DNA of 64,000 bases from the sequence record NC_028847.1, one strand, 5' to 3'. How positions within the stretch are numbered: position 1 is the stretch's first letter; each line of letters opens with the position of its first letter. Position numbers and translations under genes: made by a program. This DNA comes from Escherichia phage QL01. The notes under the pieces are model-generated. The model made no database searches, was not told where the DNA came from, and saw only the letters and a program-made list of their open reading frames with translations. Below are positions 44,834 through 57,451 of the stretch, piece by piece.

Positions 44834-44841
44834 TATAAATA
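44834..44841 (+). promoter_or_regulatory. Late promoter TATAAATA for gene 34
   Basis: Exact TATAAATA about 33 nt upstream of gene 34 ATG. Confidence 0.55.
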
Positions 44842-48934: not shown

Positions 48935-50056
48935 ATGGAAAGATTTATGGCAGAATTTGGACAAGGATATGTCCAGGTTCCTACATTATCTGAAAACAAT
49001 GCTGTAAGGTATAAACTTAGTATAGCGGGTAGTTGTACTAAGTCTACCACAAAAGCATATGTTAAATTTCAAGATGGGAACTTCGGTTCCCAGAATTTTC
49101 AAAATGGATTAAACCTTATAGAAATCGATGTTAGTGCTGAACCCAAAATAGTGGCTAACAAAACTTATAGTTTTACAAAAGATTTTGATGTTATTTCTGA
49201 AGCTTTTATAACGTATATAAATTCTATACCAGCCAATAGAATAGTTTGTTTAGTATCTTCTGGTAGATTAAATGCTTCACAAAAACTTATCGATTGGTTC
49301 CATGCAGCAGGAAGTACCGCATTTCCATCTAAATGGCTAATAGACCGCTTCGAGCCGTCTTATTCAGCATTTTATGTTTCAGGAAGGAATGCTATAGTAA
49401 TGGAACATGTGCTTTATAATGATGGGGTATTGGTCGAAGATGTTTCTACTCCATTGGAAGTGGTATTTGACGATATCAGTGATGTTGGCGGTACAGGATA
49501 TCCTGTCAGAATTGTTGAAGATGAAAACACTTATCTAAGCAATGAGGGAGATGAAATTAAGCGATTTCCTACAGAATCTCCTACCGCCCCATTAACAGAT
49601 TATAATATGAAACCAGGTGAATTCTTTTATCTTAAGTTTCAATTAATGTGCGACCAAGCTTTAAAAGATGTCGGGACTTCTCAGATGTCTGTTAGATTTT
49701 TTAACGCCTCAGGTGCTTTAACTGGGACAGTTAATATGGACGTTCCTTCCAACGTTCCTGCCGGTGCATGGATGACATTTGAACGGGTAGTAATGGTTCC
49801 TGAAGGTACTACAGACTTTACCCTTTATGCCAGAAAAACAGCTTCGGCTGGCCAAGGCGGAGTTCGAAATGTTATGTTCGGTGAGATATCTGAATCAGAA
49901 CCTCAGCCAAAACCTGCTGAATTTGGTGTTAACGGTATTCGTATGAACTTTGGTACGGAAACTAAAAATATGGGTACTACCATAGCCCAGCTATATGATA
50001 AAACAGGCACTAAACCTGGTCAGGTTTGGGTCGCTGAATTTAGAGAAAAATATTAA
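48935..50056 (+). CDS. 35: Long tail fibre hinge gp35
   Basis: 373 aa; MERFMAEFGQGYVQ... matches recalled T4 gp35. Confidence 0.9.
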   Translation: MERFMAEFGQGYVQVPTLSENNAVRYKLSIAGSCTKSTTKAYVKFQDGNFGSQNFQNGLNLIEIDVSAEPKIVANKTYSFTKDFDVISEAFITYINSIPANRIVCLVSSGRLNASQKLIDWFHAAGSTAFPSKWLIDRFEPSYSAFYVSGRNAIVMEHVLYNDGVLVEDVSTPLEVVFDDISDVGGTGYPVRIVEDENTYLSNEGDEIKRFPTESPTAPLTDYNMKPGEFFYLKFQLMCDQALKDVGTSQMSVRFFNASGALTGTVNMDVPSNVPAGAWMTFERVVMVPEGTTDFTLYARKTASAGQGGVRNVMFGEISESEPQPKPAEFGVNGIRMNFGTETKNMGTTIAQLYDKTGTKPGQVWVAEFREKY

Positions 50057-50787: not shown

Positions 50788-53700
50788 ATGGCTACTTTAA
50801 AGCAAATCCAATTTAAAAGAAGTAAAGTAGCCGGTGTACGTCCGGCACCGGCCCAGTTGGCTGAAGGCGAACTGGCTATTAACTTAAAGGACCGTTTACT
50901 TTTTACTAAAGACGATACTGGAGCGATTATCGACCTTGGCTTTGCTAAAGGCGGTAATATCGACGGAAACGTTATTCATAACGGTAACTACACTCAAACC
51001 GGTAATTATAATCTGTCTGGTACTTTTACCCAAACAGGTAGTTATACGACATCCGGAAGTATAACAGCAAATGGTGATATTACTGCAAAATCTCGCCTAA
51101 TGACGGATATGGGCGAAGTTTTGGTACGTGGCAATGGTACCGCACATGTTCGATTCCAGGATTTAGCTGATGCGCGCGAAAGAGCTATAATTTATTCTCA
51201 AAACCGTACTGGGGATACCAAGCAAATCTTGAACGTTCGTGTTCAGGATTACACTAATTCGACATCTAATATTTTTGCATTCAACGGCGACGGTTTATTT
51301 TATGCTCCGTCTATTTCCGCCGGAACATCAGTAAAATCTCCGGTAATTTATACTAATACTGTTAATACAGACAGTAAGAATATTGGCGATTATGATATAT
51401 CTTCATTAGCAAATAATAATTCTGCCACGGATAAAAACTATTTGCGCGTTGTACGTACCGACCCAGCGTCTGCAATACTTCATGAAATTTGTGAAAATAA
51501 CGGTATCAGTTGGTATTCTGGTTCAACCCCTACTGATTATATGTTGTCTTTTGCTTATTCCGGTGGTTTTCAAGCAGGTCATTCGATTGCAGTAGGTATG
51601 GAATCAGGGCCTTTGACATATTCAACCTTAGGTAAAGGTTCTATTGTTCTTGGTGATAATGATACCGGGTTTAAATGGAAACAAGACGGCCTGTTCTATA
51701 CAATTAATAATGGAGCTTATACTTTACTTACAACTCCAACTGAAGTTACAAGCCTTAAACAGTTAGTTGCGGGTTATTCAACCAACGGTTCTGATTTAAT
51801 TCTTCCTACAACTCAAAACTATCCATTAGTTATTGTTAATACTACTAATGATAAAAACAGCTTCGGCGACGGTCAAACTCTTTTAGGTTATCACCAGAGC
51901 GGCAAATATCACCATTATTTTCGTGGCAAAGGTGTAACAAACGTTAACACCGCCGGCGGGTTGTTGGTTACTCCTGGTAACGTTGAAGTCCGGGGCGGTT
52001 CGGTTAATATTGATGGTCTCAGTAATGCTTCTACAGTGCTTTTTAAAGGAAATACTACAGGATATAGTTCAGTCGATAATATAGAGCTCAAAGTTTGGGG
52101 TGACACTTTTAATACGGTAGGTGGTTCTCGTAAAAACGTAATGGAAACATCTGATGCTACTGGCTGGATGCATTATATTCAACGAACTACAGAAGGTAAA
52201 GTCGAATCCTATTTAAATGGTACCATGAATGTAATTGAAGGATTGACTGTCAATCAAGATACATCCTTAAAACGTAATCTGTATGTTTCCAATGAAATTA
52301 AAGTTCGCGCTGCTAGTGGTCTTCGTATTTGGAACGATAAGTATGGTGTTATTTTTCGAAATTCGGAAGACCAACTGCATATTATTCCGACCAATGCCAA
52401 TGCCGGCGAAAGTGGTGGATTGGGCCCATTACGACCGTTAAGTATTACATTAGACACCGGCATAGTTAAAATTCCTAACTTAGCAGCCAACCAGGTTTCT
52501 TTTAGTAGCACAGGTGTATTGGAATTCATCGCCGGTAACGGTTCATCTTATGCTAACCAGAACACAACTAAAGCTCCATTGTATCAAACGCTTGGTTCTG
52601 CGACTCAAGCATTCTATCCTATTACTAAGCAGAAAAATACAGTTTCTAACGTAACTGTTACTCAAGGTATGGACCGAGCTACGAGCGAATACCGAATTGT
52701 TGCTCAAGGTGATTTGCTTGGTGATGGTGATGCTACAGGATTGCAATACTGGCGATTTACCAAAGAAGGTAACTTTATAACTCGGAACCGCTTATATGCC
52801 GGTACAGCTTTCATGAATACCGATGGTAATATTGCAGGTTCTATTTGGAACAAGTATAGCGGTGCTACTAACCTTGATGCTGCAGTGAATACTCGTGTTG
52901 GTAAAGGCGGCGATACAATGACTGGCAAATTAATCGTTAAAAGAGGCTCTGACGCTATTAACATTGCTGCCGATGAAAATGATTCTGCTTATTTACTTGG
53001 AACATCGGGTGGAGCGAATTCGTGGTACATCGGTAAAGGCGGAGCAGATGACACTGCTTCATTTTATAATTTCAAAACTACCGCAGGAATTACTCTTAAT
53101 AGTGTAGGCGATATTGATTTTAATGTTAAAAAACAATCTACTGCAGCTTCATTAAATTTTTATCGTTTATATTTAAACGGAAGACAGTGGACAGCTACTC
53201 AAGGCCACGGATATAATAATCAATGGCAAACAGAAGCCCCATTCTTCGTTGACTTTGGTGAATCTGTTCCGAAAGATAGTTATATGCCAATTATCAAAGG
53301 AAAAAGCCAAATCATTAACGAAGGATATGCCACAAAGGCAGATTTTGGTATTATTAGATTGGGCGGAGATGCTACTTGGGGAAATGCAGTAATTCGTGTT
53401 GGTTCTGCGGAAAGTGGAGATAGCAGTCATCCTAATGCAATATTTGTGTTTCAGGCTAATGGCGATTTTAAAGCTCCGGCTGGTCTTCGCGCTGGTGTTA
53501 ACTTGGGTGTCGGTACAATTCCAGCATGGGGCGGAGCATCTATCGCCATTGGGGACGATGACACCGGCTTGGTCCATGGCGGTGACGGCCGAATTAATAT
53601 GTATGCCAATAGTATGCATATTGCAAGCTGGGGAGCTGGTTACCATATCCATGAAGGTCTTTGGGATACCACTGGTGCCTTGTGGACTGAAACAGGAAGA

Positions 53701-54111
53701 GCTATTATTTCTTTTGGTCATTTAGTCCAACAAAACGATAGCTATTCAACATTTGTTCGTGACGTTTATGTTCGTTCTGATATTCGTGTTAAAAAAGACC
53801 TTGTTAAATTTGAAAATGCTTCACAGACACTTTCAAAAATTAACGGTTACACTTATATGCAGAAACGTGGCCTGGATGAAGAAGGTAATCAGAAATGGGA
53901 ACCTAATGCCGGTTTAATTGCTCAAGAAGTTCAAGCTATTTTACCTGAATTGGTTGAAGGCGACCCTGACGGTGAAGCTTTACTTCGTTTAAACTATAAC
54001 GGTGTAATTGGTTTAAATACAGCTGCAATCAATGAGCACACTGCAGAAATAGCAGAATTGAAATCAGAGATTGAAGAACTTAAAGCACTAATTAAATCAT
54101 TGTTAAAATAA
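50788..54111 (+). CDS. 37: Long tail fibre distal subunit gp37
   Basis: 1107 aa; C-terminal coiled-coil-like tail ...[18 protein letters not shown]. Confidence 0.9.
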
Positions 54112-54142
54112 TAAGAGGGGCTTAGGCCCCTTGGAGGTTTAT

Positions 54143-54940
54143 ATGGCAGTTGAAGGACCGTGGGTTGGATGGTCTGCAGTAGTTAATACCGGGCAAAACT
54201 GGATGGGCGGCGCCGCTCAACGATTGAGAATGGGTATTCCGTTTTGGATGAGTAATATGAACGGTCGGTCTGTTGAAGTAATTCACACAATAACAGCAAA
54301 CCATAACTTTAATGGCCAGTGGTTCCGCGACCGCTGTTTTGAAGCAGGCAGCGCACCTATTGTGTTTAATATCACAGGCGATATAGTATCTTACGACCGT
54401 AATGTTCCATTGTTCTTTATGAATGCCGACACACCTAATGAATATGTCAATTTGACTATTCATGGAGGCGTGCATATGTGGGGCCGAGGCGGCCACGGTG
54501 GGTGGACCCATTCAGGTGGCGACGGTAACGGTCAATGGGGTGGTGATTGTATAGTCAACCATATAGGTCATAGACTACGTATTTGGAACTATGGGGTTAT
54601 CTGTGGCGGTGGCGGTGGCGGTGGTGGCATTGCGTATCGTCCTCACTCAGGTGCTAACTGGCAAGATATCGGTGGTGGTGGTGGACGTCCATTTGGTCCT
54701 GGTGGCGGTGGTGGATACTCCGGTGGTGGTGCTTCTTATGAAAGCCCTGGCGGTGGATACGATTATGGTAATGCCCACTCAGGTCGTGGCGGTGATGCTG
54801 GCGGCGCTGGCGGCAACGCATGGAATGATGGTGGTAAAGTTCTTAAAGTTGGGGCTGGAGGCGGTTCTGGGGCTGCTGTTGCCGTTTCTGCTCCTGCATG
54901 GGGCGCGACAGGTACGATTTACGGTCCTTGGCTTAGTTAA
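54143..54940 (+). CDS. 38: T2-type gp38 receptor-recognising adhesin
   Basis: Start at ATG after GGAGG SD (track ORF begins at TTG); [20 protein letters not shown]...[27 protein letters not shown] matches recalled T2 gp38; poly-glycine motifs separate variable segments. Confidence 0.8.
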
Positions 54941-54945
54941 GAATT

Positions 54946-54953
54946 TATAAATA
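54946..54953 (+). promoter_or_regulatory. Late promoter TATAAATA for holin t
   Basis: Exact TATAAATA about 19 nt upstream of t ATG. Confidence 0.55.
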
Positions 54954-54971: not shown

Positions 54972-55625
54972 ATGGAACCAAAAGTAGGAATATCATTATC
55001 AGACCTACTTTTTGGACTTCTTGATAGAATTTTTAAAGATACTTCTTCCGGGAAAGTTGTTTTTTCCCGGGTCCTAGTCGTAATATTATTGTTCTTTATG
55101 GCATTGGTTTGGTATAAAGGCGAGTATATTCTAAACTTTTATAAAGAGACTACTTATGCCTCTTATACTGAAATGATTAGACAAGACCAGGACAATAGAT
55201 TTAAAATTGCGGCTATCGAGCAGCTCCGAATAGTGCATTCTTCTTCAGGCGCAGACTTCACAGCAATATATTCTTTTAGACCGACCAACATGAATTATTT
55301 TGTGGATATGGTGGCTTACGAGGGTAAATTACCGGAAACGGTAGACGCAAAAAACACGGGAGGGTTTCCAATTGACAAAACGTCAGTAGAATATATGGCG
55401 GGAGTTAACGGGAACTATTTTGAATCAAGTACCGAAACTGTGTTCCTTCCTACAAAGAAGAAAACACAATTCACGTATATGTTTTCGTGCCCGTTTTTTA
55501 ATTTGGATAACGTCTACGCCGGCTCGATATCGTTGTACTGGTATGATATCAAACCGGATTTAGGATTTCCTAGACTTTCGTCTATGTGCGGTCAGGCTGG
55601 GAGGACATTAGGTCGAACACGTTAG
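54972..55625 (+). CDS. t: Holin T
   Basis: 217 aa (T4 T is 218 aa); single N-terminal TM segment; matches recalled T4 T (FKD..GKV..SRV.VVILLF, YSCPFFNLDN.YAG). Confidence 0.9.
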   Translation: MEPKVGISLSDLLFGLLDRIFKDTSSGKVVFSRVLVVILLFFMALVWYKGEYILNFYKETTYASYTEMIRQDQDNRFKIAAIEQLRIVHSSSGADFTAIYSFRPTNMNYFVDMVAYEGKLPETVDAKNTGGFPIDKTSVEYMAGVNGNYFESSTETVFLPTKKKTQFTYMFSCPFFNLDNVYAGSISLYWYDIKPDLGFPRLSSMCGQAGRTLGRTR

Positions 55626-56482: not shown

Positions 56483-56970
56483 TAGTAAAGGTCCTCAGAG
56501 TAAAGTTCTTTTTCACTGCCACCACGTTCAATACGAACTTGATTAGCATAAGTCGCAATAATCATTGCTTCTTCGCGAGTCCAATAGTTTGAATATTGGT
56601 CAATAAATCCTTGGTCATCACCACAAACATGGTCTGATACAAGTTTATCACTTACCTGGTCGAGAACTTCAGCCATATCTTTAGAATAATGACGAGCACC
56701 AGGAATAACCAGAGTCCCACCGTCTTTTAACTTAAAGCGGTTGGCTGCACACACAATCCGACGCTGATATTTTTCATTGTTGTTCCAATGAGCAATCTGC
56801 CAACAGATTTCAGGAACCTCTTCCAGAACATCCTCTTCCGTATATTCGGTGTAGTCGCCATAGGCCTGTAATTTAGCTGCTAGACTTTCGGGCGTCTCAC
56901 GAGAAAGTGCTTTATCTAATAAAGCCAGACGGTGTTTAAAGGATAATTCTTTAGCTTTTAATGGATTCAT
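56482..56970 (-). CDS. Hypothetical protein
   Basis: 162-aa ORF. Confidence 0.5.
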
Positions 56971-57125
56971 TTGGATTCCTCGACACTTTTGATTTTTATA
57001 GCTTTTTCGGAACTTTCAAAGCATTGACAATATACCCTTACCGCATCAAATTGGTTAGCCGCTTTAAGATGGACCACCACACCTTCGCCGTTATAAAATT
57101 CTGCGACAATTTTAAATGTTTTCAT
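56967..57125 (-). CDS. Small ORF (52 aa) bridging two genes
   Basis: ATGA overlaps at both ends; [52 protein letters not shown]. Confidence 0.4.
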
Positions 57126-57451
57126 TTGAACCATCCTTTAACACGTTGCCATAAAGTTTTCTGTTGAGCTTTATTAACACCAATTGAACGAATAACAGGT
57201 TGTGATTCCTGGTATTCTTTGTAGTCCGCTTTATAGACTTCATAAGCGGCTGGAATAAAGGTGCTGATTGCCGCCATAAAGTTTTTACGAATTCCCATAG
57301 AAGCTTCAGTACCACCACGGATGATTAGGTATTTACCGGCTTTAATCTTAACAATAGTTCCAAGATAAGCGCCATGGTACCAAATATCCCAACCTTCTTG
57401 AGTAGGTTCTGCACAACGACGAAGTTCATTAACAATATTCAGCTTGTTCAT
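57122..57451 (-). CDS. Hypothetical protein
   Basis: 109-aa ORF immediately downstream of motA. Confidence 0.5.
   Translation of the reverse strand: MNKLNIVNELRRCAEPTQEGWDIWYHGAYLGTIVKIKAGKYLIIRGGTEASMGIRKNFMAAISTFIPAAYEVYKADYKEYQESQPVIRSIGVNKAQQKTLWQRVKGWFK

Follow-up and report, generated by a model that had tools for sequence, protein, structure and literature searches.

A predicted T2/S16-type tail-fibre tip adhesin encoded by gene 38 of Escherichia phage QL01, with OmpA as its probable receptor

Introduction

The gp38 adhesins (Riede et al., 1987; Trojet et al., 2011, PMC3157838; Dunne et al., 2018), whose prototypes are the proteins of phages T2 and T6, are known in structure from Salmonella phage S16 (6F45 chain D) and from the RBD of E. 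coli O157 phage PP01 (9V85). Both proteins consist of an attachment domain, a beta-helix and a polyglycine-II sandwich, and in S16 three tryptophans of gp38 dock into pockets of the gp37 trimer (PMC6851490). The receptors differ between members: S16 and PP01 bind OmpC, T2 binds FadL/OmpF, and T6 binds Tsx. The gp38 of T4 (NP_049864.1), on the other hand, is placed in PHROG 105 ('tail fiber assembly') and is described in a RefSeq note as not being a virion component.

Here we describe the gp38 of Escherichia phage QL01 (Dhakavirus ql01, genus Dhakavirus), encoded in a window of 64,000 nt of the sequence record NC_028847.1, to which all coordinates refer. With T2 and T6 gp38 it shares the family, the gene position, and the alternation of glycine motifs with variable segments; with T4 gp38, in contrast, only the gene name and the position between gene 37 and t. 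A first-pass annotation of the window had read the protein as an adhesin of the T2 type, with a conserved N-terminal domain for attachment to gp37, C-terminal glycine runs, and variable loops that would set the host range.

Results

Gene 38 and its surroundings

Gene 38 lies on the plus strand at 54143–54940, as an open reading frame of 798 nt that opens with the ATG at 54143, ends with the TAA stop at 54938–54940, and encodes 265 residues; Pfam, PDB and exact-sequence matches label the product as a tail-fibre tip adhesin, or receptor-recognising protein. It is preceded by gene 37 (50788–54111) and followed by the holin gene t (54972–55625), in the order 34-35-36-37-38-t that is also found in T2 and WG01; the reading frame with its start and stop, and its place after gp37, are as the first-pass annotation had given them. 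A Shine-Dalgarno sequence, GGAGG (54133–54137, plus strand, by reading of the sequence), stands 5 nt 5' of the ATG. An automated list of reading frames had proposed a TTG start at 54131; since MAV... opens every homologue, the true start is the ATG at 54143. Three overlapping reading frames, at 54122–54511 (minus strand, 129 aa), 54591–54950 (plus strand, 119 aa) and 54654–54821 (minus strand, 55 aa), were rejected as by-products of the GC-rich stretch of GGN codons.

All 265 residues agree with those of the 'tail fiber adhesin' in the QL01 record (AKU42909.1 / YP_009202983.1), and gp35, gp36, gp37 and t are likewise exact QL01 proteins, with consecutive accessions (AKU42906–42910). The annotation of gene 38 in that record is already correct, and the protein, being published and annotated, is new neither categorically nor incrementally.

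The 31-nt spacer between the genes for gp37 and gp38 contains a GC-rich hairpin, AGGGGC-TTAG-GCCCCT (54116–54131), recognised in the sequence, which takes up most of the room from the stop codon of gp37 to the ribosome-binding site of gp38. Lacking a T tail on the plus strand, it is no terminator of the classical kind, and it could act in RNA stability or in translational coupling. A scan for promoters and terminators returned nothing exceeding shuffled expectation. On the 3' side of gene 38, 19 nt 5' of t, lies one copy of the T4 late-promoter consensus, TATAAATA (54946–54953, plus strand), and the sole other plus-strand copy nearby is at 44834–44841, 33 nt 5' of gene 34; the count of this motif in the 64-kb window is not above chance, so that it is by position only that these copies are assigned as late promoters. 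No copy lies directly 5' of genes 35–38, which suggests that gene 38 is part of a long late transcript.

Elsewhere in the window, gp35 (48935–50056) has a marginal match to Pfam ILEI (interleukin-like EMT inducer domain, PF15711) over residues 57–130, scoring 28.6 bits where the cut-off is 27; such a label is not what one expects of a tail-fibre hinge protein, and may come simply from a small beta-rich fold that the two have in common. At 56973–57122, about 150 nt without a BLAST match to WG01, KIT01 or LHE83 stand in place of about 330 nt with a 112-aa reading frame (WG01 ORF258), instead of which QL01 has a 55-aa reading frame at 56967–57134 on the minus strand, a minor replacement or indel within the arn/motA early region. 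A search of the whole window (1–64000) yielded neither tRNA nor tmRNA genes.

Family membership and fold

QL01 gp38 matches the full Pfam GP38 profile (PF05268) with E=8.4e-63 and 212.6 bits against a cut-off of 25, and Gp38_N (PF21721) over residues 1–39 with E=3.9e-20 and 72.0 bits against the same cut-off of 25. Among the PHROG families it falls into 2056 ('tail fiber protein; host specificity'; 2.3e-102), and in the PDB its sequence finds the gp38 RBD of PP01 (9V85, E=1.8e-58) and the gp38 of S16 (6F45 chain D, E=2.2e-46, residues 1–264), to which it is about 57% and 48% identical, respectively. An AlphaFold2 (AF2) model of the single chain, built from an alignment of 65 sequences, has a mean pLDDT of 84.5 and a pTM of 0.77, with pLDDT values above 90 over most of residues 50–260; confidence is low over residues 1–45, as expected because this domain folds against the gp37 trimer. 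In a Foldseek search of the PDB the model superposes on the two gp38 structures (9v85_C, E=1.5e-26, with a target-normalised TM of 0.87; 6f45_D, E=9.6e-23), and significant matches are to gp38 structures only, the next match having an E-value above 1. The model thereby reproduces the beta-helix and polyglycine-II sandwich fold. Each defining feature of the family that can be tested by sequence is present, and by sequence and model QL01 gp38 is a full member of the T2/S16-type adhesins. The epithet 'T2-type', as used in the first-pass annotation, is valid for the family; T2 gp38 itself is just 43% identical to that of QL01, and T6 gp38 61%.

The position of the gene, which is the same as that of T4 gene 38, and several GenBank records of homologues that read 'distal long tail fiber assembly catalyst' point to a different role, in which gp38 would be an assembly chaperone of gp37 outside the virion and the tip of gp37 would bind the receptor itself. 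These labels, however, are a legacy of annotation transfer, and the comparison with T4 gp38 speaks against such a role: there is no sequence similarity between the two proteins (BLASTP E=7.5), T4 gp38 has no match to Pfam GP38, and the PHROGs of QL01 gp38 (2056, 1121 and 31734) and T4 gp38 (105, 7290 and 1807) do not overlap. In addition, QL01 gp37 carries an intramolecular chaperone of its own and has a capped tip like that of S16, not a needle tip like that of T4. BLASTP, Pfam and PHROG together rule out a T4-type identity, and we give this role practically no chance. Of the two findings that the first-pass annotation had named as speaking against an adhesin, a better similarity to the T4 chaperone and a lack of the attachment domain, neither is observed: BLASTP gives the value above, and Gp38_N is present. 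Its preference for an adhesin over a chaperone is borne out by Pfam, PHROG 2056, the matches to 9V85 and 6F45, and the modelled fold.

The attachment domain and its gp37 partner

The N-terminal attachment domain comprises residues 1–39 (54143–54259, plus strand), as delimited by Pfam Gp38_N and the conserved tryptophan columns: W7, W20 and W35 align with W7, W20 and W36 of S16, and are kept in all full-length sequences aligned. The conserved N-terminal domain of the first-pass annotation is therewith found. Docking of gp38 onto gp37 through this domain is an analogy with S16, by which the three tryptophans of QL01 would enter the gp37 tip in the same way.

The gp37 of QL01 (1107 aa) offers the corresponding partner, in that its residues 913–1107 match the fragment of S16 gp37 that was crystallised with gp38 (6f45_A, E=7e-44). 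Within this region, residues 913–996 (53524–53775, plus strand) correspond, by the match to S16 gp37 (6f45_A), to the distal tip of the shaft, the platform capped by gp38, and residues 997–1107 (53776–54111, plus strand) to a C-terminal intramolecular chaperone, Peptidase_S74 (Pfam PF13884, 9.4e-12 at residues 997–1056). The chaperone begins with SDIRVKKD at residue 997, which aligns with SDRRIKKD of S16; cleavage at this motif, if it occurs in QL01 as the alignment suggests, would take off 111 residues of gp37 and expose the docking surface for gp38. Drexler et al. are said to have described, in 1986, a C-terminal processing of T2 gp37 by roughly 120 residues, which agrees with the predicted 111. 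S16 and PP01 share with QL01 this arrangement of a gp37 tip followed by an intramolecular chaperone, together with the three docking tryptophans.

The N-terminal domain of gp38 occurs in subtypes. That of QL01 (MAVxGPWVG) is common to WG01, KIT01, AV111 and FL08, which are 89–94% identical to it over residues 1–39, and the gp37 tips of the same four phages are 86–100% identical to that of QL01 from about residue 950. T2 and T6 have another subtype (MAVVGVPGWIG, with a two-residue insertion), and the gp38 of LHE83 has a T6-like N-terminus (MAVVGIPGWIG; 53% identical), combined with a gp37 tip that is only 32–74% identical over residues of about 950–1100. Over residues 913–996 of gp37, WG01 is 100% identical to QL01, AV111 and FL08 are 94–100%, and LHE83 is 32–74%. 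AV111, FL08 and AV119 share both the N-terminal type of gp38 and the gp37 tip with QL01, whereas LHE83 differs in both. The type of the gp37 tip thus co-varies with the N-terminal type of gp38, which supports a role of residues 1–39 in attachment.

In MX01 and LHE83, a T6-like attachment domain is joined to the same OmpA-type specificity domain as in QL01 (97% and 88% identical, respectively). This combination of domains implies recombination inside gene 38, roughly within residues 40–113.

Glycine runs and variable segments

The attachment domain leads into the central beta-helix domain, whose N-terminal part, residues 40–113 (54260–54481, plus strand), has strands over E46–113 in the AF2 model, with a pLDDT mostly above 85, and aligns with the beta-helix of gp38 from PP01 and S16. 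The receptor-specificity domain, residues 114–238 (54482–54856, plus strand), is delimited by glycine runs and columns, segment identities and the fold match, and consists of polyglycine-II sandwich motifs that alternate with variable segments. The protein ends (residues 239–265; 54857–54937, plus strand) with a last glycine-rich motif and with C-terminal strands by which the beta-helix is closed; the AF2 model has strands over E246–260, and columns from G239 to G261 are conserved.

The first-pass annotation had pointed to glycine runs with two stretches of GGGGG, and these are found exactly: a run of eight glycines at residues 155–162 (54605–54628, plus strand), and two runs of five, at residues 177–181 (54671–54685) and 187–191 (54701–54715). 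By alignment with S16, as described in PMC6851490, the run of eight is equivalent to the polyglycine-II (PGII) helix 3 of that protein (151-GGGGGGGG-158). The two runs of five surround a conserved RPFG turn, and the whole stretch they delimit (residues 177–191; 54671–54715, plus strand) is 100% identical across the OmpA type-1 relatives; S16 and PP01 share the helix of eight glycines and the RPFG turn. In addition there are 13 shorter runs of GG or GGG. Glycine makes up 37.5% of residues 114–265 versus 10.6% of residues 1–113, and the GC content is 57% in the C-terminal part of gp38 versus 40% over the window as a whole. In 65 homologues that reach down to 39% identity the glycine columns never vary, while the segments between them do. 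Because these columns are invariant, the glycine runs are a conserved feature, far from chance. A reading as tandem repeats subject to slippage was rejected: TRF sees tiny arrays only (GTGGCG x3.7 and GCTGGCGGC x2), which reflect runs of GGY codons and not a separate repeat element.

Alignment with gp38s that include those of T2, T6 and S16 delimits four variable segments from the segment identities: segment 1 at residues 121–132 (54503–54538), its boundaries being our own and approximate, segment 2 at residues 163–176 (54629–54670), with R166 and H168–A171, which correspond to modelled receptor contacts (PMC12032242), segment 3 at residues 192–215 (54716–54787), and segment 4 at residues 225–238 (54815–54856), all on the plus strand.

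The predicted receptor

The receptor was approached by aligning QL01 gp38 with gp38s of experimentally known receptor and comparing them segment by segment. The closest relatives, WG01 (YP_009323450.1; 99% aa and 98.5% nt identity, the best DNA match in the phage collection) and KIT01 (BBI57602.1; 98% aa and 96.4% nt identity), are likewise members of Dhakavirus, and resemble QL01 in the gp37 tip and the t gene as well, at about 96–97% identity. A further group, AV111 (Mosigvirus), FL08 and AV119 (Tequatrovirus) and LHE83 (Dhakavirus), is 82–91% identical overall. In the specificity domain, residues 114–238, the identity to QL01 is 100% for WG01, 98% for KIT01, 97% for MX01, 93% for AV111, which depends on OmpA and the LPS outer core as judged from deletion mutants (PMC10844046), 88% for LHE83, which uses OmpA (PMC10987938), and 85–86% for FL08 and AV119, which use OmpA as 'type 1' (PMC12032242). 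It is 39–48% for T6 (Tsx), T2 (FadL/OmpF), Bp7 (LamB/OmpC) and S16 (OmpC), and in the same range of 39–48% for M1 and FL18, which use OmpA but belong to other types.

The four variable segments make this separation sharper, being 79–100% identical to the OmpA type-1 relatives versus 0–37% to other types. Segment 1 is 91–100% identical to AV111, FL08, AV119 and LHE83 versus 16–25% to T6, T2, M1, FL18, Bp7 and S16; segment 3 is 79–100% identical to the type-1 relatives versus 20–37% to other types; and segment 4 is 85–100% versus 0–21%. The variable segments of T2 and T6 are 0–30% identical to those of QL01, matching the different receptors of these phages, and the loops of the OmpC-binding S16 and PP01 are unrelated to those of QL01 (0–37% for S16).

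Residues R165 and H167–A170 of FL08 are among those modelled as contacts to OmpA (PMC12032242), and the variable segments of the FL08/AV119 allele class are marked by R165–A170 and D217 in FL08 numbering. Seven of the nine modelled FL08 contacts are kept in QL01 (R166, H168, S169, G170, A171, R182 and D218), and the same residues, R166, H168–A171, R182 and D218, are shared by AV111, FL08, AV119 and LHE83. The two contact residues that differ, P167 and W263 (V166 and R262 in FL08 and AV119), are shared with AV111, which is OmpA-dependent. QL01 and AV111 differ at 8 residues in the specificity domain; dS is about 1.6, which is saturated, and dN is 0.05, giving a dN/dS of about 0.03, which, with synonymous sites so far diverged, speaks for a function that has stayed the same. 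The loops, although called 'hypervariable', are by these values under strong purifying selection within one receptor class.

Since its loops match adhesins of phages whose receptors have been established by experiment, we predict that QL01 gp38 probably binds OmpA, perhaps with some assistance from the LPS core, and that it most likely belongs to the 'type 1' class of OmpA-binding adhesins (Lutz et al., 2025); OmpA has been tested as the receptor in AV111, FL08, AV119 and LHE83, and is a prediction from sequence for QL01.

An adhesin of the same family could instead use another receptor (Tsx, OmpF, OmpC, FadL, LamB or OmpW), or depend on LPS as the main determinant. Single substitutions in variable segment 3 can change the receptor, as in RB51/RB68, where Q206L turns gp38 from OmpF to OmpW (bioRxiv 10.64898/2026.04.02.716166); Bp7, the closest Dhakavirus with a studied adhesin, is reported to use LamB and OmpC (PMC10987938); AV111 needs the LPS outer core as well; and LHE83 has a residual receptor beside OmpA, its adsorption to a BL21 ompA knockout still being about 50% (PMC10987938). 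Against this, the 79–100% identity of all four segments holds for four phages of three genera, each tested independently and found to depend on OmpA, and the 0–37% identity for the adhesins of every other receptor class compared; the specificity domain is under strong purifying selection across a saturated synonymous divergence, and in published phylogenies close gp38 relatives have a common receptor. We therefore hold a receptor other than OmpA to be unlikely, and OmpA remains the predicted one.

Host range among close relatives

According to the first-pass annotation, the host range would be set by the variable loops. This stands as far as the class of the receptor is concerned, which the loops fix, and falls short where close relatives are compared. 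QL01 and WG01 gp38 have the same specificity domain and are told apart only by E4G, W10S and V14A, which all fall in the attachment domain; yet, as reviews summarise Chen et al. (2017), WG01 acquired a wider host range on receiving host-determinant segments of QL01 (PMC13517834, PMC11938639). Because the loops are identical and the grafting nevertheless extended the range, the loops of gp38 are not the sole determinant of host range among close relatives.

The two phages diverge in gp37, which is 59% identical overall: its first 50 residues are near-identical and roughly the last 160 are identical or nearly so, whereas the shaft between them (residues of about 51–950; 51034–53541) is 20–76% identical per block of 50 residues, not only to WG01 but also to KIT01, AV111 and FL08. 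When proteins are clustered at 90%, QL01 gp37 remains a singleton, and among the phage records searched none exceeds 87% identity to the shaft DNA over 80% of its length. QL01 gp37 is a mosaic fibre, and its shaft may matter for the reported difference in host range between QL01 and WG01.

One could accordingly take gp38 as a common OmpA anchor and assign the choice of hosts among close relatives to the gp37 shaft or to other factors (gp12 and the LPS core, or defence systems). The identity of the two specificity domains, with the three differences confined to the attachment domain, and the divergence of gp37 in residues of about 51–950 favour this assignment; on the other hand, in T6-like phages it is enough to exchange gp38 for the receptor to switch completely (bioRxiv 10.64898/2026.04.02.716166), and a binding site on a gp37 shaft capped by gp38 is purely hypothetical. 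We consider it a real contender, at somewhat less than even odds, which complements the account of gp38 as the OmpA-binding adhesin and does not exclude it. A more specific combination appears doubtful to us: that the sub-allele with P167 and W263 (QL01, WG01 and AV111) recognises other loop variants of OmpA or needs a co-receptor, and that the gp37 shaft has a second host-recognition function independent of gp38. If true, such a function of the shaft would explain the gain of hosts by WG01 from QL01 segments despite the identical specificity domains.

Discussion

The family, fold and domain layout of QL01 gp38, and the pattern of its similarity to other adhesins, follow directly from the comparisons above, and they fit a model in which monomeric gp38 caps each long tail fibre, docked onto gp37, and most likely binds OmpA; we put the probability of this account at about 0.9. 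By this model, trimeric gp37 would fold with the help of its own C-terminal intramolecular chaperone (residues 997–1107), which would then be cut off at SDIRVKKD. One gp38 would dock on the exposed tip of gp37 by its N-terminal three-helix domain, through W7, W20 and W35, as in S16. The remainder of gp38 would form a beta-helix, from which two long excursions make a three-layer polyglycine-II sandwich out of the glycine runs, and the short variable segments between the runs would be the distal loops in contact with the receptor of the host, most likely OmpA, perhaps helped by the LPS core. The location of gp38 in the virion, the cleavage of gp37 and the binding to OmpA we infer from relatives, for which antiserum blocking in LHE83 has shown a role of gp38 in the virion and in adsorption (PMC10987938).

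The conservation of the loops inside a receptor class supports the prediction of receptors by similarity; the pair of QL01 and WG01 illustrates that the same loops are no guarantee of the same host range. When cocktails are put together from phages whose receptors do not overlap, it helps to know that QL01 carries a gp38 of the predicted OmpA type, for which resistance would arise through loss of ompA. Recombination within gene 38, of the kind implied by MX01 and LHE83, would re-pair specificity domains with different gp37 tips.
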